Under the pieces are notes generated by a model. The model saw only the letters and a list, made by a program, of their open reading frames with translations, searched no databases and had not been told where the DNA came from. The position numbers and the translations under genes were made by a program. DNA of 63,446 nucleotides, counting the filler, from Reclinomonas americana ATCC 50394 (taxonomy: Eukaryota), in assembly GCA_048213135.1 (NCBI GenBank). It is 7 parts of one record of this genome, joined end to end, with 100 filler letters (N's around TTAATTAATTAA, not from the genome) between each part and the next. Parts side by side here need not be neighbours in the genome. Positions count along the whole stretch, not along the records: positions 22,090 to 50,400 come from PS015082.1; 6 more parts are not named here. One strand, 5' to 3'. This document shows positions 7,254-57,464 of this stretch, in pieces; positions within the stretch are counted from its first letter, which is position 1; every line of letters starts with the position of its first letter.

Positions 7254-8761
7254 GACGAACGAACGAACGAACGAACGAACGAACGAACGAACGAACGAAC
7301 GAACGAACGAACGAACGACGAACGACGACGACGACGTACGTACGTACGTACGTACGTACGTACGTACGTACGTACGTACGTACGTTACCGTACCGTACGT
7401 ACGTACGTACGTACGTACGTACCGTNNNNNNNNNNNNNNNNNNNNNNNNNNNNNNNNNNNNNNNNNNNNTTAATTAATTAANNNNNNNNNNNNNNNNNNN
7501 NNNNNNNNNNNNNNNNNNNNNNNNNAGAGAGAGAGAGAGAGAGAAAAGGCCATGCACAACCCAAGACAAAGCACACGCAAGAGAGACACCGACAAGATGT
7601 GGATCCCAAGATGATTTGTTCTCCACGGACTGCCTTTCTCTTGTCCCTCACACAACGCAACTTGCCACACAGATAGTACACGCCCGGCGACGCCAGCGTG
7701 CACGAACCAGTCGCCGTCGCACCGAGAGCACCCTGCGCAAACGCGGCGCCAGTGGCCACCGAGAACACAGCCTGCTGACCCGAAGCATCGCTGGTCGACA
7801 GTGTGGCGCTCGAGTTGGCAGCCGGCGATCCGCTGCAGTCGGCGGCCGCGTACAAGCCAAACGAGCCACCAGCGCCCAGTTGACGATTGGCAAAGTGATT
7901 CCCAGTCACCGTCAAGCGATAGTCGGCGAGACCATTCACCAGCTGCGGTGTCTTGTTTGCCGTGCTAATAGCGTCTGCGAGTGTCGGGAAGGAAGAGAGA
8001 GTCAGCGACAGAGTGATGATGATGACTGCGCGCATGTGTTGACTGAGACGCAACAGACAAACACCGTGGCGACAAACTCGTTGCGAGCGGCCGTCCCCGC
8101 ACCGTCCACGTCGATGCACAGGTAGTGCTCACCACCGTTGCCGTCAGCCGACGCGTTGAAGGTGAGCGAGGCAGCAGCATTGGAGACGACGACAGTGGTT
8201 GGCGACACGCCCGTGCACGAGCGGTCGAGAAAGAGAGTGGCGGTGGAAGCAGTCGACCAGGCAATGGCCGAGCCACTGACATTGATGTCGACGATCTGAC
8301 CAGCGGTGCCGGCCTTGATGGCGATGTTGGAGGGCGAGATGACTGAAAGAGTGCAAAGAAATGAGTCAACGGTCGGCTTTCGCATATGCTCGCTGCGAGA
8401 GGGATAACACGCACAAAGACGTGACGCCTTCACAAAGGCAATCGGCTTCGCACGCAATGAATGAGAGTGCGAGATTTGTGCAATAAGATACGCGCGAAAG
8501 GTACTTCTTGCGCACATGCGCATGCACGTGCACTTGAGCTCTCAACGGTTGACTATCGCGCGCAGAAGGAGAAAACCGCAGCGGGCGCAATAGACGGCCA
8601 CGTACACGAGGGAACGAGAGAGGGAGGAGGAGGAGGAGGAGGAGGAGGAAGGAGGAGGAGGAGGGAGAGTCAAGACTGGCGGAAAACTGCGCGTGTTGTT
8701 CGCAGCACATGCACGTGAAAAGGCACGCACGCTGTGTGTGCTCGTGTGCGCGTGCATTCAT
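3688..8761 (-). CDS. Large putative secreted/surface protein: Ig/TIG-like modules followed by a C-terminal Cys-rich tandem array (model crosses the contig linker at 7470)
   Basis: Exons encode S/T/G/A-rich beta modules ending in Y/F-x-L-C (EHYLCID, VYYLCGK, AFKLCVA) and a hydrophobic LLLLLLLL stretch near the 5' end. The terminal exon starts after ttgtccag near 5376 and runs without introns to TGA at 3688. The 5' boundary is uncertain. Confidence 0.55.
3706..4901 (-). repeat. 14 tandem C-C-CC-C-C (knottin/ICK-like) protein modules
   Basis: Translation of ORF 3688..5397 contains 14 units such as CTLGAIGDPCSSPTECCSLFCVGFAC and CSADGDPCNDPAGCCSGNCDGSGFC. Confidence 0.85.
7470..7481. other. Artificial contig linker TTAATTAATTAA flanked by N runs (also 14875-14886, 22034-22045, 50445-50456, 52368-52379, 57409-57420)
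   Basis: The same 12-mer with stops in all six frames sits between ~44-N runs each time. Confidence 0.97.
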
Positions 8762-13004: not shown

Positions 13005-15011
13005 TGCCATGTCAAAGTGCTCCGCAAACAGAGCATCCACCAATTCTTCAGCGACACAACACACCGTCAGATCACCATATACACGGCGTGTGATAGCAAA
13101 ACAGCAGTGCACCATGCTTCTGAGCTTCGTCCTCGAACAGCGAAGCTCGTGGACCAGTCGGACCAAGCGCACGAGCCACCACACCCTGCATGTCGATAAT
13201 GTGCAGATTCTTGCGAATGTCGCCCGTCGACAGAGGCGAGCCGCCGCGAGGGACGACACCGTTCAATGCACGCGAGAACTCCTCCTGTGCATGCGGACAC
13301 GATCAGCACTTTTTTTGCACGTCATCACTGGCACGCATGGAACACCGCCGACCTTGGCCTGCTCCAATACGCGAAGCCTCATTTCAAAGTCGCGTTCTTG
13401 CTGGAATAGGCGAAGCAGGGTGAGGCCGGCACGGCAGTAGTCACCCATCACTCTCTGGAAGCGAAGCAGGATGCGGTACTTGCGATCGTTGCTCAGCTTG
13501 CGACAGCACGCCAGCAGGTAGTTGTGCGATCGCGCCAATCCAGGGTCTGTAACAGCAACAGCAAGCAGTCAGCAAGGCAAAGTAACTGAGCACGTGACGC
13601 CATCATCACACGCACCGCGGGCGGCGACTTCGGCGAGCAGCTTTTCAATTTTGCCGTGGCTCCACGCATACGACAGCAGCGTGTCGACAAAGAACGCCTC
13701 AGTGACGCTGGAGTCCAGGCACAGTTGAATCGCGTCTTCCAACAGGTGGTGTCGCACATAAAAAGCGCACACAGACGCCTCATTTCCCAGCAGGCGGATG
13801 TAGTAGAGACACTCGTTGAACCAGGACGCATCCTTGTCGGGACCTGACGCAGCATCGTGGCTGGACGATGAACTTGAGCCGGAAGCTGTGCCGCGAATCT
13901 CACGTCAGCAAACCATCGATATGTGCAGCCACAACAATCACCCTCGTGCGCAACGTGAGAGGCCCGACGGCAGCAGGGAGCGCGGGTTCTTGCTGCTTTC
14001 CAGTACTTGAAGAATGCGACTCAGCAACAACTTTTGCTGGTACGACGCACCTCCTGGGCATACAAACAAAGAGAGTCAAGAATAGAGCGACCACGCGGTG
14101 TGTGAATGCGGGAATGGCGCACCACTGCAGTACTTGAACTTGGCGCGCGCCTGCTCGTATTGCGACGGGCCACATTTGATGAGCGTGAGGCCCCACTCAC
14201 TCCACACTGGCTCGCTTTCGATGCCGCAAGTGGTGCACAGTGCCATGGCCAGTTGCATGTGATCGTTCTTCACCAACTGGTCACGCAGCTGGCGCAGCTT
14301 GTTGGCGTCGGACAGATCGCTTAGCCGAAGTGGCAGGTTGACGCGTTGCAAGAGGAGCGACTGCAGGGCACGGACGAGAGCACAGTAAGCAAGAGGAAGC
14401 GGGAAACCCGCAGCGAGCGTTCGCACCTTCATCAGTTCCACACGCGAGAGCAAAGTGTCGCAGAACGACACCGTGCCGGAAGAGTCCGCATTCTGCAATT
14501 GTGGAGAGCGCGTGAGACGCGGACACGACGTGAGAAGCACCGCGAGCCACAAGACCTTCAGATACAGCGTCTTGGTGTAAAAGATGAGTTGCGTCACGGT
14601 GGACAGCAGGAACATGTGGTACTCGGGCAGCACTTCGGGGAGCCGCGATGACAGCGTATCGGCAAGATCCACACAAAACGTCCCCGTCTTGTGGTAGTCG
14701 GAACACAGATCCAGGATCTTCTTGCCGAGTAGAATCGACGGGCTGTTGGGGAACTGGTGAGCGCGTCGAATGGCGTCGTTCTGCCGCTCGTCCAGCGTGA
14801 ATGCTGCAAGGTGCGAGACGTTCAGTACCANNNNNNNNNNNNNNNNNNNNNNNNNNNNNNNNNNNNNNNNNNNNTTAATTAATTAANNNNNNNNNNNNNN
14901 NNNNNNNNNNNNNNNNNNNNNNNNNNNNNNCAGGCGCGACACGTCGGCGAGCGCCTTTCGTGCGTACTCAACAACATTTCGGGTCCGTCGATCCAGACAG
15001 AGTAAGCGAGT

Positions 15012-21930: not shown

Positions 21931-22162
21931 GGTCTTGTCTCTCTCGCCCTCTCTCTCTCGTGCTGTGTGTTGATGTCTGACAGCAAGCGNNNNNNNNNNN
22001 NNNNNNNNNNNNNNNNNNNNNNNNNNNNNNNNNTTAATTAATTAANNNNNNNNNNNNNNNNNNNNNNNNNNNNNNNNNNNNNNNNNNNNCTTGTGTTGTG
22101 ATGTGGCACGAGGGGAGAAGGGACGCAGCGGCCTGACACGTGCGTATTGCCCGAACGCACAG

Positions 22163-23591
22163 CAATTCTACACGATTATTCCACACGATTTCGGCAACAA
22201 GATGCCGCCGCCAATCGACAACGAGGAGCTGCTGCAGAAGAAGGTGGCGACAGTGGACTCACTGCTGCAGATGGAGGTCGCCGCGTCGCTGCTCAAGTCC
22301 GACGGCTCTGCTGGTTCGCCGAGTGACACATCGCTCTCCTCGACAACCGTCCCCTCCCGCTGACCTGTGTATTTTTCGTGCCAGGTGGCTCAGAGGCGCT
22401 GCACCCGCTCGACGAGCACTACCAGCAACTGCGCACCGACATTGAGCCGGTGGAACGCAACTCGGAGGAGTGGCAGATGGTGGAGCGCTACGTGCGCCAG
22501 TCACACGGCTCGACGCACTCGCACTTCAAGCTGGCTGTTGCGTCTCACCTCATAGATGCAGTTGTGTGTGTGTTTTCAAGCTCTGATTTGTTGCGCTACA
22601 GCTGGTGGAGGTGTTCCGCATTGCTCGTGAGGGAGAGTCGGATCGGTACACGCCGTGGACCACGCTGCACAACCGCCAGCTGCTCTGGCACGGCTCGGTG
22701 CGCTGCTTCCTTTTTCTTGATGAGCTGCCCTCAGTCGCTCACTCGATGCACTCGTCGCAGCGCCTGACCAACTTTGTCGGCATTCTCAGCCAGGGTCTGC
22801 GAATCGCTCCGCCAGAGGCGCCAGTGACAGGCTACATGGTACGCGCACCTGCTGCAAGTCTTTCTCCGTGCACTGACTCACCTGTCCATTCCTTGTGTCT
22901 GCGCAGTTTGGCAAGGGTGTGTAGCGGCGGCGAAAGGCTCTCATTCTGTGTCGTCGCACTCTTCTCACACGTGATTGATCGTACAGGAATTTATCTCGCC
23001 GATCGCGTGTCGAAGAGTGCGCAGTATTGCTTCGCCCACTCGTTTGACAATCGCGGCCTCTTGCTGCTGGCCGAAGGCGCCCTCGGCAACATGTACGAGT
23101 GCACTCGCGCCAACTCGAGCCTCGCAAAGGCACCGCAGGGCTTCCACTCGACCAAGGGTGAGTATGTGTGTGGACGGCGCGAGTTTGCGAGCGTGATCTC
23201 TCTTGCTGACGCGCGGTGCGACGACGCAGGTGTGGGTCGCGTGCAACCCGACGAGAATACCTCCATCACCCTCCCCGACGGCGTTCTCGTCCCACTGGGC
23301 AAGACCAAGGAGCTGCCGGCATCGAGCACCACGCTGCAGTACAATGTTGCGCATCCATATCTATCGGGTTTTCTCTCGCAGCTTTTCTCACGCGCGCGCG
23401 TCTGTGTCGTGCACCTGCAGGAGTTTTGTCGCCGCCCCGCTTACGGTTCCCCGCCTCCGTCCCCTTTTTTCCATTCTCACCAAGCAATATTTTCGTTTTT
23501 GTGGCACAGATTTATCGTGTACGACATGTCGCAGGTCAAGCTGCGCTACCTGATCGAGCTCGACTTTACTGGCCAGGCGCGCCTGCTCTAA
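22163..23591 (+). CDS. PARP: Poly(ADP-ribose) polymerase, PARP1/2 type (regulatory + catalytic domains; 5' part lost at linker)
   Basis: Spliced product: FYTIIPHDFG..HNRQLLWHGS|RLTNFVGILSQGLRIAPPEAPVTGYM|FGK G|IYLADRVSKSAQYC..ALGNMYE..HSTKG..LQYN|E|FIVYDMSQVKLRYL. The H-Y-E triad is complete only if micro-exons 22907-22916 and 23421-23422 are used. Confidence 0.95.
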
Positions 23592-31490: not shown

Positions 31491-33118
31491 ATGGAGGAGG
31501 TGCGTGCGACACACACACATGCACAACAGTGTCATGACTCGCACTGCTGCGCATGTTCTTCCGCGTGTGTGCGCCTGTGTGTTGGCATGACGATCGACAT
31601 GGCACACAAACTGCTTCTTCCTCTCTCTCTCTCGCTCTCTTTCTCTCTTCCAGTCCTCTATCAATGTTCATGCCACACACCTGTCTCTTTCCCTCTCCTT
31701 CGCATCACTTGTGCTTTTTTTTCGCTGGATTCGTCGCGCATCGCATCGAAAAGTTCTCACTCTCTTCGCATTTTTTTCTGCGCAGATTGTGCACTTGCTG
31801 AACACGGAAGTGGTGGATCGCCTGATTCTGGGTGTCGAGCCGAACCCGGCCAACACTCCGCTCTCGTTCGACTACTCGGTGTGGCGCCAGGCGGCGCTCA
31901 TTTGGTCGCTGATCACCTTTGGCGGCTACATTGTTTGTTGCGTCAATTGCCTGGTCCTGCCTCCCTCTCATCTGCCTCTTGTCACTCACGCACCCCATGT
32001 GCGTTAGATTTCATCTTCTGCACCCTGTCGTACCTGTGGACGTTCAAGCTGTACAAGAACTACTACTTCCCGCAGGGTCTGGTGGTGCCGTGGAGCCAGC
32101 TCGGCAGCGAGATCTTCCTCTCCTGCTGGTCGATTCCCATCATGGGCTTGCTGACGGTGCCGCTGGAGGTACGCGTCTCTCTTCGTCGTTGTCGTTGTGT
32201 GCCGACTGCCAACTCACCTGCATCGGCAGCTGCTGGTGCTGTACGGCTACACCAATGTTTACTTTAATGTGTCGGACTACGGCATGGCGTACATGTTTGT
32301 GTCGCCGGTGCTGTTCCTCATCTTTACCGACTCGCTGATCTACTGGATCCACCGCGGCCTGCACGACATCCCGTGGCTCTACAACAACATCCACAAGCCG
32401 CACCACACCTTCAAGGAGGTGACGCCGTTCTCGGCCTTGTCGTTCCACCCGGTCGACGGCTGGGCGCAGGGTCTCCCCTACCACCTCTTCGTGATGGTGT
32501 TCCCGTTCCACTCGTACATGTACTTTGGCGCCCTCCTCGTCGTCAACATGTGGACCATCAACATCCACGATCGTTGGTCACTCGACATCCCCGCCGTCAA
32601 CGGTGCTTCGCATCACGACATTCACCACCGCAAGGTATGTGCGCGCGCTCCCAATAGTGTGCTGATCTCCTGTTCCAGTTGCTCACTCTCTTGTCCCTCC
32701 CCCCTCGCAGTATGTCGTTGCGTACAATGCGTCAACCTGCTGCTCGCACCCGTGCTTCCCCCTCATTGCTCACCTCTCTCTGCTCGTGTCATCTCATCGC
32801 CATGCACACCAGTACAACGTTGCGTCTCACTCACATTGGTTTGTTTGTCAAGCGTCGCGCCACTGACCCTTCCCTTCCCTCTCCCCCTACGCAGTATGGC
32901 CAGGTGCTGTCGCCCTCCCTCTGTTCTCTCACCCCAGCCTCTCATCTCACATTCACACACTTGCTCAGTACTTGACCTTCTGGGACAAGGTCTGCGGCAC
33001 GTTCCTCGACCCGGCGGTGCAGGCGGCCAAGGATGCCGAGGAGGAGAAGAAGTGGGGCAAGCGCTCCGGCTCGGTCTCCACAGGTGCCGGCAAGAAGAGC
33101 ACCATCAAGGCGGCGTAA
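31491..33118 (+). CDS. ERG3: C-5 sterol desaturase (ERG3/SC5D family)
   Basis: His boxes YWIHRGLH, IHKPHH, SFHPVDG, NIHD and HHDIHH, then YV|YN|YGQ|YLTFWDKVCGT from micro-exons 32711-32716, 32813-32818 and 32895-32903. Stop TAA at 33116-33118. Confidence 0.93.
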
Positions 33119-33323
33119 TGGAACTGGCGAAGGATTGTTATTGTTTTTTTGTTTTCTCCTCCCAAGAGTAAGTGTGTGCACAGTCACTGTCTGTGTGATT
33201 CTTTCCCCGTTCAACGTACGGAGAAGTGAAGACGCATGACAAAGGCGGTGACGGCATCCATACGTACACAAACACAGCTTATTTAATTGTATTGCTTTGA
33301 CTGCTCTCTCATGATTAACAATG

Positions 33324-36300
33324 TCACACTCGACTGGGCGCAAAAGCATGCGGCTGTCGCCCTGCAGCACTGGCGGCCGACGCAGCGCTGGCCAGGTCCG
33401 ACGGTGCTGGTAACCGTGGTGGCTGCGGTGGTGGTGGCGCCGCCGACAGGTACGACCGCGGGGCGTCACTGCGTGCGTCCAGCGAGGCCGTCGAGTTGGA
33501 CGCTGGCCGACCAAACAGTGGGTTGCTGACGTTCTGTCCGACCGCCGACGCACTACTGCCCAGTGGCGATGTGGCGGGGGTGGGCGGCACAGGTTGCGCC
33601 GGTGGCTGCGGCAGGCCAGCGGCCGATCGCACCGACTGACCGCGCAACAGTGACATGGTGTCGGGTGGCGTGGCCGGTGGCGTGCCATTCGTCGGCGACG
33701 ACGGGGGCGACTGCTGTGCGCCCGGACCCGCCGATGGCAGAGGTGCAGACACGCCTCCCCTGGATTCGCGAAGTCTGTACACGTACGCGCGCGCACGTCA
33801 GTTGCAAGAAATGCCTGGGTGCACGCACGCAAGAGTCGACGCAACTGTCGCATTTTTTGCCACTGCGCGGCAAGTGAACCGGCTGGTGGATCCGACGAGG
33901 ACTTGTCGCCGCCGCCACCGCCGCCACCGCCACCTCCGCTGCTGTTACCACGACCGAGTACACCGCCAAGAGTGGAAAGCGTGCCACCACCACCGCCACC
34001 GCCGCCGCCGCCACCACTACTACCACCGCCACCACCACCGCCGCCACCCGAAGGCAGACTGATGCCTCCGCCTCCACCGCCGCCACCGACACCGAACAGG
34101 CGAGAGGAAACCAGCACCAGACCTGCACTCAGAGGCATTAGTGATGTGCAGCAAAGTACGAACTCCTTCCCAAACTGTCTCTCACGCACCCGTGGTGATC
34201 ACAGTGGAGAACGCGTTGGTGCCGGCGCTGAGATACAGGAATGCCACGACCACAAAAGCGAGAATGCTGCCGAGTAGCAAGGCAGTCGACAGCACGGAGA
34301 CGAGGATGGTTCGGGTGCGATGTCGCACGAATCTACGAACGGGAGGGGGAGGGCGAGTGAGTATCGTGACGTGTCGTGTATGTGCGTGATCTGATCGGAA
34401 CTTGGTGATGGTTCTGAGCGCACGCTCCAGGCGCTGGCCCGTGAGACCACACGCTCGTTCGGCGACTTCTGCAGCCTCCTGATCCATCGGTGCTCCCGGG
34501 GCGTACAGGCGCTGCATTGACGGAGATTAATGATGGGGGGGCAGGTGACGTGGATGGTGCACACACGAACCACAGCCTCCTCGTCATTGAGCTCGTATCC
34601 GCCGCGTACGACAAACGTGGCCCGACGCAAGCTGATTTCAACCACATCCAGAGCGAGACCGGCATTGTTGGCCGAAAAGTAAATGGCAAACACCTGATCA
34701 AGGTCGGTGCAAGTGGGCACACGACATCGCACCACTCCATTGCGTGCAATCGCATCAGTCACACTCACCATCGCGCCCACTGCCGCCGCCGGCAGCAGCA
34801 CGGTCTGGGTGGCCACCAGCAGGCCGACGATGAACCAGAGACAAAACAAGATGATCGCCGCGATCACAGTGACAATCAGCACAAAGGCACTAATCTGGTA
34901 GAAGACTTCCAGGGTCCGCGACGGTACTTGTCCGTGCTTGAAGATGCGGTGCCAGCGACACGACGCCACCACCAACCAGAAAAGTGTCACCGACAGTGGC
35001 CACAGTAATAGCTGGTGACTCGCAGTGAGTGCCACCAGCAGCAGCACACGATCGCACAACCTCACAACGCACCACCAGCATGGCGGTGATATCTTCTTGG
35101 AACACAATCGGCGCCATGAAAATCCACGTGTAGAGAATGCTTGGTGCGCACAAGTTGACGATCAGCAGCCAGCGTTTTCGTGTCTTCAGGTCTCTGTCGA
35201 GCACCACCGAGTGAGTCCAGCAGTTGGCGAGAGGCGCGGTGGTGGCGAAGCAGGCACGCAACTCTTCCGACATGTCCTTCAGGTGCGATGCCTCCAGGAA
35301 CGACGATCCCGAGATACCGAGTGCGCGGAAAATCAACGTGGCCACATAGATACCACCGCCAATGGCACTGACCAACATCAGTGACAACAACACGATCCAT
35401 TCCGATTGCTGACACACATTGTGAATACACGGGCGAGTGTCATACACGCACACGCACACACACACAGAGCTGTGACTCATTGCGCAACTGAGGTCTTGTT
35501 GGGCGTGCAGATGCCCTGATTGTCGCAGCACTGCAGGTTGGGGTTGGAACCAATCACCTTTGGTACGACGGGGTCGCCAAAGCAGAGTGTCGGTGGCGCC
35601 GCCAATTTGGTGGTGTTGTACGCCTGCACAGGAGCAGCGATTGTCAGAAAACAAGAGAGACAGGAGAGAGATAGGAGAGTAATGCAATGAAGACGCACCG
35701 TGTACAGCGCCAACGCAATGGTGGTGATGCGGTAATCTGGCGTCGTATCGATGCAGAACGGCAACGACAGCTGAATCTGAGCCACATTGTAGTCGAATGG
35801 CACCAGGAACAAGGTGAAGAACTGCAACACCAAGTAAGCACACAAGTGATACGTGCGGGTACCGCGACGGAACAACACCAAACTTGGATGAGCTTAAAGT
35901 TGAACTGGTAGTAAAATGCATTGTCTGCAATCGCCTGCAACACGACGGCGCAAAAGAGACGAGCGACGAGTGAGTGCGTGCGCATGTGTGGAAGTACAGG
36001 GGCATGGAGAATAACGTCACCCAATGCTGTGGATAAACGCCACTGTACTGGGTCTTGAGATCTGTATCCAGGAGAACCGAGCTCAAGTCGCCATTCACCT
36101 GCGAATCGGAGACGCATACATCAGTGGTGGAGAGGGAAAAAAAGAGCGGAGCGTGCGCTGCAGCATTGCGCAACAGAAATGTTAATGAGCGTCACTGGGC
36201 GCAGAGGCGAAATGCTGCGCAACGCCGCCGAGAAATTCGTGGACGACACAGGGGCCACAGCTTGCGTGAGGTAGGATGTGGTGTTGACAGGCGGGTTGGG

Positions 36301-38339
36301 CAGCGGGTAGGTGGTGCACGCATCGTCTGCACAAATGGAAATGGGTGCGTGGTGGTGAGCGTCTGCAAACGACACGAAATCGGCTGACGACGCACGATTG
36401 GCAAAGGCGCTAAAGTACTGATCGGCGGTCGGGCAGTAACCGGCAACGTTGATGGCATTGCCGTAGCACTGCAGACTGCCGATGTTGAGAGGCTTGGTTA
36501 AAAACGTGTAGCCGAACGAAGGGCAGTTGACGCTGCCGGTGGCACACATGGCAACCAGCGTGGTCTGCACGGCAAGAAACACATGCCGCGGTGAGCAACG
36601 CCACCGAGTGTTCTGCAAGCACGAACGTTGCTTACCCAAGTGAGTAAGAGTGGTCTACCACCCACAAGTGGCGTGAGGATGTCGTAGTTGAAGCGTAGTT
36701 GTAAAGGCTGACCGCTCCCAGGGTTCACTTGACCGGCGGGGTTGGTGATGACCCACGACATGGTGTCGTCTTCGAGCAGATTCCACGTGCCATCCGGCTG
36801 GATGAACACAAGTGTCGTGATGGGCCCTGTACGTCGACGGTTGTGAGCGACGAAGGAATGTGTGGGGAGTTGAGGGAAAGCTGCGACGTACACATGCACG
36901 TGATGCGGACGTTGTTGCTCTGCGACTGCTGCTGAATGTCGTTGGAGCACCACGGCAGGTTGACTGGATTGCCCGAAGCGTCAATGACCGTCACATTCTG
37001 CGCGCCGCCAATGTTCAGCTTTCCTGATACCGACAAACAGAACAACAGCAAACAAGCAACGAGAAGCACACACCAGCGTCTGCGCCGACTCGAGATAATT
37101 TAGGGAGGAGCACGGCACGTAGTAGAAGCTTTGCGGCGGCACCAATTGCGGGCAGTTCAACTGTGCCGCGTAGCTCCAGCCAGAGAGGATCACCGAGTAG
37201 GCGACTGCGAGGCGCGTGTCAAGCATGGAAGATGATGAGATAGATTGTGAGAGCACGCACTGCCAATGGAGGGCGCCACTGTGGCCACCAGTGTGATTGG
37301 GACGAGAACGGGATTCGAGGTGACCAGCAAACTGGCCTGCAGCGGCTGCGCCGACGATTGCTGACCAATGTAGCCGACAAAGATGAGCTGCGAGAACACG
37401 GCCTGCCCGTTCACGGTGTTGACCGTGCTCTGGCCGATGAACGCGAAGCTGGGATTGCTGGGCGAAATGACGACGGCACGTCCATTGTCGCTCAGCACCA
37501 GATTGCCCCAGCCGTCCGTCACCTCAATCGTCATGGTGCGGAACGGCATGCCCACCACGGCGTAAAACAGCGCCTGAACTGAAGTGGCAGAGGCGCGCAA
37601 GCGAGTCGAGTCTGGAAACACAGCGTGTGTAAGAGAGGGATGGCACAGCACGACTCGTGCGGGGTGCGAGACGCAACATCCGTACTGTACGACCACGTTA
37701 ATGGTGGCGTCGAGGGCACACGAGGGATATTGGACGCGAACTTGTAGCGTCTCCTGTATGACGTTGCCGTTCAACACCGCACCGCAAGCAGTGTTCAGCT
37801 GACCGCAAAGCGTCCAGTAGACCTGATCGCCACAGCGGGTGTGGTGAGCCAGAGGTCTCCGCAAGAGCGCGAAGACCAAAGAAGAACGCAACTGCTTGTG
37901 AGACTGGATCGGAGGTGAAGGTGGAGGCCGCCGTGTACCCCTGCGTGCACACCTGCGCGCACCCTTGGCCAGGCGCCACACCTATCCGCGTGATGTTGAG
38001 CACCACCTGCGAGTTGAAGGTGATGGCCGGGGTGCTGGTGAAGCTGAGCGCATTGTACTGGCCCATGCGCATGGGATTGGTCGTGGTGTAACCCTGCAGT
38101 CCATTGACGATCGCCAGCGACATGAACGGACAGGCAGACGCACGCGGAACCACACTCGTGCTGGTGGCAGCCACTATTGCAAACGAGTCAGAAGGTGAGT
38201 TGCGTGCGCGGCGCGAGAGTGCAGTCACGAAACTCGAGGCCATTTGCATCGCCGCGGCCAGGTACACTGGGATGAGAAGCGCCACGACTGTAAACGTCAA
38301 GAGACGCGCAAGCGCGCCATCAGCACGGCGCTGAAACAT
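33324..38339 (-). CDS. Large multi-pass membrane protein: signal peptide, Cys-containing ectodomain, several TM helices, Gly- and Pro-rich cytoplasmic tail
   Basis: N-terminus MFQRRADGALARLLTFTVVALLIPVYLAAA. Many small GT-AG exons. Hydrophobic helices at 34200-35410. Poly-Gly at 33900-34090 and a Pro/Ser tail ending at 33324. Confidence 0.6.
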
Positions 38340-46800: not shown

Positions 46801-48377
46801 TGTGTGACTGCATTCTTGCATATGTTGTGACTGCTGTCCATTCCTCACGCCGTTCTACAGTCGCGAAATTCTGTTCTACGAGCCCGACATTCTCTGCCTG
46901 CAAGGTGAGAACGAAGAGAGAGGTCAACAACAAAAAGGCCATTGTGGTTGACTGTCATTGCAGAGATCCAAGCGCCCGGCAAGTGGGAGCAAGTGAGTCT
47001 CGATATCGTGCTGTATGCACTCCGTGCTTCGCCTCCCTCAACTCGTGTTCGTTCAGGGAGAGCATCCGTCGATCAATCATGCGCACTGGATGTTTAGGAC
47101 GCTGAGTGCTGCCGGCTACCGCGGTCGCTATTGCAGGAAGCGCGGCCGCAACGGACTAGTCATCCAGGAGCATGAGCCAGTGATCGGCAACATGCTGCTG
47201 TGGTTCGTCGGTACAGTGGTGGCAATGGTGGTGATGATGGCTGGATGACTGATCGTTGTATTCTGTCGCAGGAAGGACTCGGTGTTTGAGTTGGTCTCCA
47301 CACACTTCTTCAGCATGGTGCGTCTCCGCCGTCAGTCGATGCACAAGAGTGAGACGTGTGTCGTTTACATGTTGCGCGCAGGCCGATGCGGTCTACGAAC
47401 TGGCCACCGATCCGACTGTGAAGCGCACCATCGGCAAGGGACACACGCAGGTCGCGGTGTTTGCCGTGCTGCGCCATCGTGAACGTGGTGACCTCGTGCT
47501 GGCCGGCTCGACGCACATTTCGGCCAACTGGAAGCAGTCGTACATGCAGATGCGGCAGATGATTGTGTTGAGTCGCGAGATACACAGACTGCAGGGCGAG
47601 ATCAGTGCGCAAATCGGGCACCCGATTCCGGTGGTGCTCGGTGGCGACTTTAATGTGACACCAAACTGCGCCATGTACGGCTACTTGCGTCACGGTGCGT
47701 GGGGCCGTCCCTTCCCGCACAACTTGCATGATATGATGACTGCTCAACCGTTTCTCTTTGCAGGATTTGTGCCTCCGGATCACCCGCTGGTGACAGCCGC
47801 CGCCGACGGGTGCGCGGCGTCCGTTCTCGACTCGACCACTGGTGGATTTGTGAATCCTCGGCCGCTCCGCAGTGCCATGGAGACAGTGATCGGCACCGAG
47901 CCGCATGTGACGAACTTTACCGTGGAATGTTGCGTCTGTTGCCACACGATAAGTGCACTCTTTCCAGTTACTCATTCACTCTGTGGCCTTATTCACCAGA
48001 TCGCGGCACGCTTGACTACGTTGCGTCATTATTTCCTCATGTTGGCAGTGTGCGTTTCATGCCTTTCTCACGGTACCCCTCTGGCATGCAGTTGTTCTAC
48101 ACCGAGCCACTCATGCCGCTGGCGGTGCTCGACGTGCCCTCTGTGCAGACTCTATCAAAGGAAAACGGGTGTGTGCTTGCACGTTTTGTCAGTGTGACTC
48201 CGTCTTCGCCTGACTGCTTCTGCCCAGTGGCCTTCCCAACTCGCGTTTCCCAAGTGACCATCTTCCAGTTTTTGTTGCGTCGTCCACCGCTGACTCTCGC
48301 TTCTCGTGTCGCATACTAACAGCTTGCATTGTCGTTGTTGTACACAGGCGCGTTTCAGATTTCCGCCGCACTGGTGA
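43839..48377 (+). CDS. Protein with La-motif (winged-helix)-like domains fused to a CCR4/Angel/nocturnin-type EEP nuclease/phosphatase
   Basis: La-like ILRHLQVWFSDEFL..DGSVPIEVMCGF..VQRKTP and VRRRIEFWLSDRHLALD..DGSIGIYELLGY..EVSPDGMQLRR. EEP motifs TMMTYNILAESL, LDWENRR, PDILCLQE, THI, LGGDFN, TNFT..GTLDYLFY and FPSDHLP. Stop TGA at 48375-48377. Confidence 0.8.
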
Positions 48378-48559: not shown

Positions 48560-50507
48560 TCAAAAGCTCAGCTCGCGGTCTACGAGTCCCTCCGCATTCC
48601 ACTGCTGATAATCGCCATCCTCCACCGATTCGTCCTCCATGGCCATACGGTCGTACTCGACACGTGCAAACTTCTCCCAGTCACTGCGCACGACGGTGAT
48701 GAGGACACAATCTCGCACGTGAGAGAGAGAAGATATAAACCTCAGAGTGTTGCTCTGGTTCTCCTGGTACACCAGGAACGGATCGCGGGTCTCGAAGGAC
48801 AGGAACTTGTTGAGGTTGGTGAAGGTATTGATAAACACGTCGGCTTGCTTGCATCGCTTGAGGTCGGAAATGTAAATGGCGGTAATGTCCACTGGCTTCA
48901 CCATGTCCAACCTGAGCGCACGACCACCACTGGCGGTGAGCATCGCGTGGAGCAAAGGTTTCGCGACAGACACACACGCAAACACGCAACATTTGACACA
49001 AAATGTCGTCAAAGGTGACAATCTCGGCCGCCAGATTCTCCATGCGCGTCAGCTGCTCCGAGTACAGGTACTCGAGCTCGTACGCGGAGAGAAGACCATC
49101 ATTGTCAATGTCCATGATACGGAACCAGTACTCGAGCGCCGTCGGCGACGTCTTGTCCTCCTCGGCAACGCAGAACCCTGCTCATCGCGGCATGAGAGAG
49201 ACGAGAGGAGCGGCTCGACCTTTGCGACAGGGGAACGCAACAGATAAAATCGCGATATGACATCATGCCACGACGCTCGCACAGGAATCGTCTCGGCGCC
49301 TGATCAAAGATGCGATCCACCACACGCGACGTTAGTGCGTAGTTGCTGTACGCGGAGAACTCCTGCACACATTCACACATACACAGTGAGCCAGTGTGGT
49401 CTACACCTGCGCTGTCATCATCATCATCGTCGCAACTTCCTTGTTGATCATGAAATCGTGGTCGTGATCGAGCTCCCAGAACTTGCAGTAGAGCACATAA
49501 AAGTGCTCGTACGAGAAGAAATCCATGATCTGGCACACACACAGTTCCAACGTCAGCCTAATCCCCCCACAAGCTGCATGAACTGTATTGTGGCGCAAGC
49601 ACACCTGATTAATGTCGTCTTCGGTGTCCAGCTTTTGCAGGGTGGCCAGCAGTTTTGAGTTCTTGAAGCTCTTGAAGTCTATTGCCTCCAGGTTGGTGCG
49701 ATCGAGAACGTAGAATATCCGTTCGACCACCGTCTCGGCTGTGTGCGCGTGACAGGTGAGCGTTACGTGCTCCGCCATTCCCCGCCACTCGACTCGACTC
49801 ACCGTATCGTTCTTGGAATTCGGGCGTCTGCTTGAGGAACTCGAGGCCCGGATGTCGTTCGAGAACCTCTGCAGAGACGAAACAGCGGGTGAGACCACAA
49901 CATCAGGCAGGTAGCATTGTGTCGCGAGCACGAGACCTTGTACCAAGTCGACAAATCCACTGCGAACAATAGTCTTGCCAGTGGGAGCACGGAAAATATT
50001 GTACACCTGACGCGCCTCCTCGTTGCCGGAGAGTTCACGCTGCCAGTACCGCAAAAACGACTCGAGGGTCACGGTGCCGGTGCCTGTCGTGTCCACTCGC
50101 CGGAAAAGTGTTCGATTTACATACGATGGCAGCTTCAGCACGTCTCGTGTCACGCGCAGCAGGCCCACTTCTTGCAGTGCGTTGCTGCTGAGACCAAATG
50201 CACTCCGAAGGCGAGCCTACATGGATACACCACCTGCCATCAGCATTCGAGAACCGGGAGAGTGTGTGGCGAGGCCTCCCACTTACCGGCACATCGCCAT
50301 CTTGTGTCCGCACCGGTGGAGGCTTGGGCTTGTAGAACGAGGGAATGATCTGCGTGCTGGCATGTGAGACACAGAAAGCCAGAGACTCTCTCTCTCTCTC
50401 NNNNNNNNNNNNNNNNNNNNNNNNNNNNNNNNNNNNNNNNNNNNTTAATTAATTAANNNNNNNNNNNNNNNNNNNNNNNNNNNNNNNNNNNNNNNNNNNN
50501 TTACTTA

Positions 50508-52266: not shown

Positions 52267-52423
52267 GGAGATCACCCCTCTCTTTCTCACACACACGCCG
52301 CGAAGACCGGTGGGAGTGGCGCANNNNNNNNNNNNNNNNNNNNNNNNNNNNNNNNNNNNNNNNNNNNTTAATTAATTAANNNNNNNNNNNNNNNNNNNNN
52401 NNNNNNNNNNNNNNNNNNNNNNN

Positions 52424-57354: not shown

Positions 57355-57464
57355 CGTTTCTGTGNNNNNNNNNNNNNNNNNNNNNNNNNNNNNNNNNNNN
57401 NNNNNNNNTTAATTAATTAANNNNNNNNNNNNNNNNNNNNNNNNNNNNNNNNNNNNNNNNNNNN

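Follow-up and report, generated by a model that had tools for sequence, protein, structure and literature searches.

Introduction

Runs of short symmetrical exons are found in the schistosome micro-exon genes (MEGs), which code for variable secreted proteins and generate this variation by exon skipping. Constitutive coding micro-exons of 1–15 nt have been described in plants, and the part of that work cited here lists a 9-nt exon of invertase, 1-nt exons of APC11 and VPS55, and adjacent exons of 5 nt and 12 nt in a rice transcript (PMC8831610). In the case of human RPS24, the cited excerpts report three consecutive micro-exons of 3, 18 and 22 bp (PMC12207440, PMC11162997). Here, we analyzed a 63,446-nt stretch of DNA (the window) from the protist Reclinomonas americana ATCC 50394 (GenBank assembly GCA_048213135.1), which carries a gene for a predicted sterol C-5 desaturase of the ERG3/SC5D type. 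Judged from the genomic sequence, the segment 32635–32968 of this gene very probably consists of four short spliceosomal GT-AG introns that enclose three coding micro-exons (6, 6 and 9 nt) spliced constitutively.

Identification of the desaturase gene

Sterol C-5 desaturases carry three histidine boxes, HX3H, HX2HH and HX2HH. The gene studied here was modelled as eight exons at positions 31491–33118 of the plus strand (897 nt, 298 residues, seven introns), and the translation of its exon 4 contains HRGLH, HKPHH and HDIHH, whose histidines are invariant in the homologue alignment (A1). Exon 4 alone matched the Pfam family FA_hydroxylase (PF04116) with an E-value of 6.4e-20 and 72.3 bits (cut-off 31) over profile positions 2–113 of 132. 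A search of a protein collection with exon 4 returned 92 longer homologues. The top ones are unnamed and 64–66% identical, and those that bear names (from animals, fungi, a red alga and transcriptomes) are described as lathosterol oxidase, Delta7-sterol 5-desaturase or C-5 sterol desaturase, with 44–63% identity over exon 4. The protein atlas look-up gave a family-level match only, and a search of PDB for sequence relatives of exon 4 gave none. The domain, the boxes, the named matches and the motif spacing described below all point to an ERG3/SC5D-type sterol C-5 desaturase as the predicted product.

The closest homologue, P0002, matched FA_hydroxylase positions 2–132, that is, to the end of the profile. 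Since exon 4 reaches only position 113, the 19 absent positions correspond to the micro-exons and the beginning of the last exon.

Micro-exons and the conserved motif

The original prediction stated that three micro-exons of 6, 6 and 9 nt, separated by four phase-0 introns and each starting with a Tyr codon, build a motif spaced as in the ERG3/SC5D consensus. The letters and coordinates of the micro-exons were re-read from the sequence and were exact, and the rebuilt gene had the same four phase-0 introns, with a Tyr codon opening every exon downstream of them. Introns 4–7 are all GT-AG, so that each micro-exon has GT..AG introns on both sides, and the reading frame is kept. The micro-exons would supply Tyr-Val, Tyr-Asn and Tyr-Gly-Gln, the seven residues that lead from the third histidine box to Y-x-T-x-W-D, and would complete the last 19 positions of FA_hydroxylase.

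The joined YV-YN-YGQ product aligned with 89 of the 92 homologues without a gap over the 17 columns of the motif, in agreement with the predicted spacing. The pattern N-[YFL]-G-Q was present in the motif columns of 90 homologues; the exceptions are P0064, with a diverged C-terminus, and P0092, an N-terminally cut fragment. The Asn of micro-exon 2 occurs in 90 of the 92 proteins, and the Tyr, Gly and Gln of micro-exon 3 in 87, 90 and 91, respectively. The conserved N-Y-G-Q-[YF]-x-T-x-W-D at a fixed spacing from box 3 was obtained only when all three micro-exons were joined.

All paths through the 334 nt were enumerated with GT-AG borders, introns of at least 40 nt and up to four internal exons, each not longer than 45 nt. 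This enumeration gave 538 paths. Four of them yielded a 21-nt insert, and a single one, identical to the path predicted originally, yielded the seven-residue family motif with the right spacing. When the 334 nt were shuffled 3000 times with dinucleotides preserved, a 21-nt path was found in 2275 shuffles, an insert ending in GQ in one, and ..[YFS]N[YFL]GQ in none.

The 92 homologues were used to build a profile, with which eleven readings were scored, including the other paths and the read-through discussed below. The product with all three micro-exons obtained the best score, 383.4 bits. The score fell to 375.3 bits with micro-exons 2 and 3, 370.6 bits with 1 and 3, and 363.3 bits with 1 and 2. 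With a single micro-exon it was 366.1 bits (micro-exon 3), 358.1 bits (micro-exon 2) or 355.1 bits (micro-exon 1), and skipping of all three, which leaves an in-frame product of 291 aa, gave 351.9 bits. The gain per micro-exon was about 14, 9 and 8 bits; micro-exon 3 alone added 14.2 bits to the fully skipped form, and micro-exon 1 added 8.1 bits on top of micro-exons 2 and 3.

Features of the introns and proposed splicing

Introns 4–7 (65–96 nt) resemble introns 2 and 3 (71 and 61 nt) in length. A [CT]T[CGA]A[CT] site is present in all seven introns, in most cases as CTCAC or CTGAC, and its A lies 13–40 nt before the 3′ end. The pyrimidine content is 62–74% in the seven introns (68–74% in introns 4–7) versus 55% in exons. 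The G+C content of third codon positions (GC3) is 0.886 in the coding sequence, as compared with 0.52–0.63 across the frames of the 334 nt. Homology spacing, isoform scores, shuffles, these intron features, codon bias and the use of the GTTGCG donor together support the prediction that three micro-exons form the YV-YN-YGQ of an ERG3/SC5D-type desaturase.

Each short intron would be recognised singly (intron definition) by its strong donor and CAG acceptor, together with a branch site of the CTCAC/CTGAC type and a body rich in pyrimidines. The splicing machinery cannot assemble on both sites of so short an exon simultaneously, according to the part of the plant study cited here (PMC8831610). 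As an acceptor and a donor 6–9 nt apart cannot plausibly be occupied together, sequential intron removal is probable. Introns 4–7 would then probably be excised one after another, with splice sites of consensus strength aiding the process, and every removal would lengthen the exon for the next step.

Two other mechanisms were considered and rejected. Folding of the RNA of 32600–33000 gave a z-score of 0.45 and no unusual structure, and a structure bringing the splice sites together was rejected; a search of the window with Rfam gave no match. A ciliate-like elimination of TA-bounded segments was rejected as well, since cuts from TA to TA shift the frame, whereas GT-AG cuts keep it.

Transcript data

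Run X1 is the sole public run found to contain part of the gene (0.05 of the sampled words); it consists of 151-nt contigs that are 95–99% alike, and its status as RNA is a guess. One contig joins 31936 to 32008 and skips 71 nt with GT..AG borders, which shows intron 2 and its GTTGCG donor spliced as modelled, in a near-identical gene. No other intron of the gene has this transcript-type support. A second contig on the gene covers 32228–32375. No X1 contig reaches the micro-exons, and their inclusion in mRNA is inferred from the sequence. The coordinates of the gene model are collected in Table 1.

Table 1. Exons and introns of the predicted desaturase gene (positions in the window)
Feature	Position	Strand	Length	Sequence features	Remarks
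Exon 1, coding part	31491..31499	+		ATG GAG GAG, 9 nt; donor gtgcgt	Start predicted from the first ATG that joins exon 2 in frame
Intron 1	31500..31785	+	286 nt	GT..AG; CTCAC, its A 26 nt before 3′ end	
Exon 2	31786..31936	+	151 nt		X1 contig spans 31858–31936
Intron 2	31937..32007	+	71 nt	Donor GTTGCGT; phase 1	Joint 31936 to 32008 in one X1 contig
Exon 3	32008..32168	+	161 nt		X1 contig spans 32008–32074
Intron 3	32169..32229	+	61 nt	gtacgc..ggcag	
Exon 4	32230..32634	+	405 nt	HRGLH, HKPHH, HDIHH; last residues HHRK (CAC CAC CGC AAG)	135 codons
Intron 4 (predicted)	32635..32710	+	76 nt	gtatgt..tcgcag; CTCAC, its A 25 nt before 3′ end	68% pyrimidine
Micro-exon 1 (predicted)	32711..32716	+	6 nt	TATGTC = Tyr-Val	Between CAG and GTTGCGT
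Intron 5 (predicted)	32717..32812	+	96 nt	gttgcg..caccag; CTCAC/CTCAT, A 40 and 16 nt before 3′ end	
Micro-exon 2 (predicted)	32813..32818	+	6 nt	TACAAC = Tyr-Asn	Between CAG and GTTGCGT
Intron 6 (predicted)	32819..32894	+	76 nt	gttgcg..acgcag; CTGAC, its A 28 nt before 3′ end	
Micro-exon 3 (predicted)	32895..32903	+	9 nt	TATGGCCAG = Tyr-Gly-Gln	
Intron 7 (predicted)	32904..32968	+	65 nt	gtgctg..gctcag; CTCAC/CTCAT, A 19–37 nt before 3′ end	74% pyrimidine
Last exon	32969..33118	+	150 nt	Starts YLTFWDKVCGTF; TAC TTG ACC TTC TGG GAC (YLTFWD)	Length includes stop TAA

Alternative explanations

The micro-exons could be real and yet behave as cassette exons, with skipped in-frame isoforms being used or tolerated as splicing noise. 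The frame is indeed kept in all eight inclusion patterns, and exons so short are generally spliced less efficiently, as stated in the part of the plant study cited here (PMC8831610). However, the residues that they encode are nearly invariant in the family, so proteins lacking them would probably be inactive, and we consider regular skipping unlikely.

It is also conceivable that the whole 334 nt are excised as one intron, from the donor at 32635 to the acceptor at 32968, and that the protein lacks the seven residues; the gene would then be a decaying or diverged copy, and the small pieces would be relics. The segment has a valid donor (gtatgt) and a valid acceptor (ctcag) at its two outer borders, the product remains in frame (291 aa), the length is plausible given that intron 1 of the gene has 286 nt, and the contigs of run X1 do not contradict this model. 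Nevertheless, such a product loses 31.5 bits against the homologue profile, together with residues kept in 90 of the 92 relatives. The GT/AG flanks, the phase 0, the branch-like sites, the pyrimidine-rich bodies and the absence of the motif from all 3000 shuffles would have to be a coincidence. Moreover, the remaining gene is intact and has a GC3 of 0.886, and X1 shows splicing of a near-identical gene. We regard a single long intron as very unlikely.

Micro-exons with other boundaries appear less likely still. Two such GT-AG paths emerged from the enumeration. In one, the first exon is reduced to the 3-nt TAT (32711–32713, donor gtcgtt), which gives Y-YN-YGQ (376.7 bits); in the other, exons of 11, 1 and 9 nt give YVVAYGQ (377.1 bits). 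Their scores are close to the best one, but the former shortens a spacing kept by 89 of the 92 homologues, and the latter loses the Asn found in 90 of them and requires a 1-nt exon. Both paths forgo the GTTGCGT donor, which is enriched in the window and used at intron 2.

Read-through is extremely unlikely: the frame of exon 4 is open for 338 codons (32155–33171, plus strand), through the four introns and, in a shifted register, the last exon, but long open frames are common at about 60% G+C (303 of at least 110 aa in the window), and the tail obtained in this way has no family likeness (317.8 versus 383.4 bits), has a GC3 of 0.52 and loses the YLTFWD exon by the frame shift. An open reading frame (ORF) caller would report this frame as a desaturase with a false low-complexity tail.

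Several points weigh against or limit the model with three constitutive micro-exons. The two paths with other boundaries lie just 6–7 bits below it, and the pyrimidine tract at the intron 5 acceptor (caccag) is weaker than those of the other introns. The proposal of ordered removal through intron definition draws on what is generally known about splicing. No contig of run X1 maps to 32376–33300, and the run speaks neither for nor against the micro-exons. Proteins of close relatives were absent from the databases searched, the best identity over exon 4 being 66% among the longer proteins and 58% among those of similar length. A search with the last exon for transcript-derived proteins of close relatives gave no match.

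The GTTGCGT donor

The flanks of the two 6-nt exons are identical (CAG/NNNNNN/GTTGCGT), and intron 2 begins in the same way. GTTGCGT occurs 44 times in the window versus 15.8 ± 3.8 expected, which corresponds to a 2.8-fold enrichment, and none of 100 shuffles reached 44. Most of these sites are preceded by coding-looking sequence, and G is depleted as the base before GTTGCG (8 of 87 sites). These features indicate that GTTGCGT is a favoured donor of the organism rather than a mark of copied introns.

Examples of GTTGCGT sites are found at 31937, 32717, 32819, 47929, 48020 and 48274 (plus strand). The sequence resembles the common GTGCGT donor with one additional T. This likeness recalls donors used in a shifted register. 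A literature search on the GTTGCG donor returned primer matches only. A scan for micro-exons based on signals alone recovered one of the three known ones and was dropped. Signals alone also mark candidate small exons between a pyrimidine-rich CAG acceptor and GTTGCGT, namely one of 11 nt at about 37893–37903 and one of 7 or 20 nt upstream of 12059, both on the minus strand.

Origin of the intron cluster

In the original prediction, the dense introns were taken to suggest clustered intron gain or a routine tolerance of micro-exons. Four of the seven introns lie inside 21 nt, and this distribution is non-random within the gene: when seven introns were placed at random in 896 positions, 290 of 200,000 trials put four of them into a stretch of 21 nt (p = 0.00145). 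The stretch offers eight phase-0 sites, four of which precede a Tyr codon, and the chance of hitting exactly those four, as the introns do, is 1 in 70.

Support for tolerance came from a second intron-dense gene, an Exo_endo_phos relative (CCR4/nocturnin-like) at 47382–48273 (plus strand), with exons of 313, 165, 20, 77 and 46 nt, the first and the last of which may be partial. Its 20-nt exon (48000–48019) has the same CAG and GTTGCGT flanks and is needed for the frame and for a conserved G-T-L-D-Y segment. With this exon, the best homologue was matched with 159 bits over residues 1–206; without it, the score was 110 bits, with the frame broken and the match ending at residue 160. Because a second gene has this homology-supported small exon, small exons seem routine in the Reclinomonas genome. 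If exon lengths varied randomly about their mean of 112 nt, 9 nt or less would be found in about 8% of exons, and three such exons would follow each other in about 5 of 10,000 cases. Three tiny exons in a row are thus rare per site, yet a large genome dense in introns should contain a few such runs.

A scan of metagenome contigs identified 80 loci with relatives that are 53–66% identical over exon 4. In all of them, the region from N-I-H-D through the histidine box and N-Y-G-Q to W-D is a single uninterrupted frame, and exon 4 is likewise uninterrupted; several of these loci are located on long contigs. They stem from intron-poor organisms or transcripts, and in them the motif is seen to be contiguous as a rule. 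None of the 80 loci has an intron in the motif, but relatives with 53–66% identity and an uninterrupted exon 4 cannot date a gain of the introns in this gene.

A comparison of introns 2–7 with the 63-kb window by blastn gave best E-values of 0.03 or higher, and the matches were splice-site or low-complexity sequences. The direct repeats found were splice signals and pyrimidine tracts. A recent duplication or an introner family was rejected, since the introns matched neither one another nor any other part of the window significantly. Clustering (p of about 0.0015) and tolerance (through the 20-nt exon) each kept some support; the four introns share no similarity that would suggest a recent burst or introners. 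The two readings are not mutually exclusive. More speculatively, the four introns could be the trace of sequence-targeted gain before four successive Tyr codons (flanks G/TA or C/TA, phase 0), in an organism whose spliceosome routinely joins exons down to 6 nt through the unusual GTTGCGT donor class; we consider this tentative idea rather improbable.

A few likenesses were noticed by eye and are weak hints. Six bases into intron 5 there is TACAAT, close to TACAAC of micro-exon 2 (32717–32735), and the start of intron 5 without a 9-nt piece would resemble the start of intron 2 (GTTGCGTCAA...). The ends of intron 4 are alike (CGCAAG/GTATGT versus CGCAG/TATGT; 32629–32716). The likenesses in introns 4 and 5 may be traces of intron origin, or chance.

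Other features of the window

An open frame at 22587–23591 (plus strand) contains the catalytic domain of PARP (poly(ADP-ribose) polymerase; PF00644, E-value 4.7e-39) in three stretches and probably represents several exons read through. Just 3′ of the desaturase gene, there is a run of GCC/ACC triplets (33850–34110, plus strand), which lies inside a 418-codon open frame of the minus strand (32942–34198). The window contains six 100-nt spacers (7426–7525, 14831–14930, 21990–22089, 50401–50500, 52324–52423 and 57365–57464), each composed of 44 N, TTAATTAATTAA and 44 N, i.e., a six-frame stop linker, and 11 further runs of N of 20–876 nt. The window is made up of contigs joined in a chain, so that gene order and the distances between neighbours are unreliable.

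Significance and comparison with known systems

If transcripts confirm the model, the locus, with four introns inside 21 coding bases and three successive constitutive exons that do not exceed 9 nt in an almost invariant enzyme motif, would rank among the densest intron clusters known. The locus would then provide a test case for a spliceosome that faces an acceptor and a donor 6 nt apart, in terms of both the order of removal and intron definition, as well as for the local accumulation of introns. It would gain further interest should the Tyr-codon pattern or the GTTGCGT donor class prove general. Standard gene predictors would either skip the pieces or read the open frame, and in both cases the result would be a desaturase without the motif. 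Homology-guided models that are aware of micro-exons are needed to annotate this genome and probably those of its relatives as well. A limited literature search turned up no earlier description of a catalytic motif with three consecutive constitutive exons that each measure at most 9 nt.

The predicted enzyme shares FA_hydroxylase, the three boxes and N-Y-G-Q...W-D after box 3 with the known ERG3/SC5D proteins (yeast ERG3, animal SC5D/lathosterol oxidase and plant delta7-sterol C5-desaturase). In the 80 related loci this motif is one uninterrupted frame, whereas in the Reclinomonas gene it appears to be cut by four introns. The schistosome MEGs have similar runs of very short exons with lengths that are multiples of three; in contrast to their variable products, the desaturase is a conserved housekeeping enzyme, and the residues in question are nearly invariant. 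The micro-exons of RPS24 differ in that, according to the excerpts cited, they are alternatively spliced, lie at the C-terminal end and include two that are much longer, while those of the desaturase are presumably constitutive and located inside a motif of the catalytic domain (PMC12207440, PMC11162997). The plant micro-exons are similar to those described here: as far as the cited part of that study goes, they too are tiny exons in conserved motifs, missed by annotation, found by homology spacing and provided with strong flanking sites (PMC8831610). The plant cases, however, are verified by RNA and conserved across land plants, and the longest run in the same part of the study is two (PMC8831610); here, three exons of 9 nt or less would follow each other in a protist gene known from its sequence. 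Micro-exons in conserved motifs are therefore already known, and a run of three that do not exceed 9 nt would be an extreme example.

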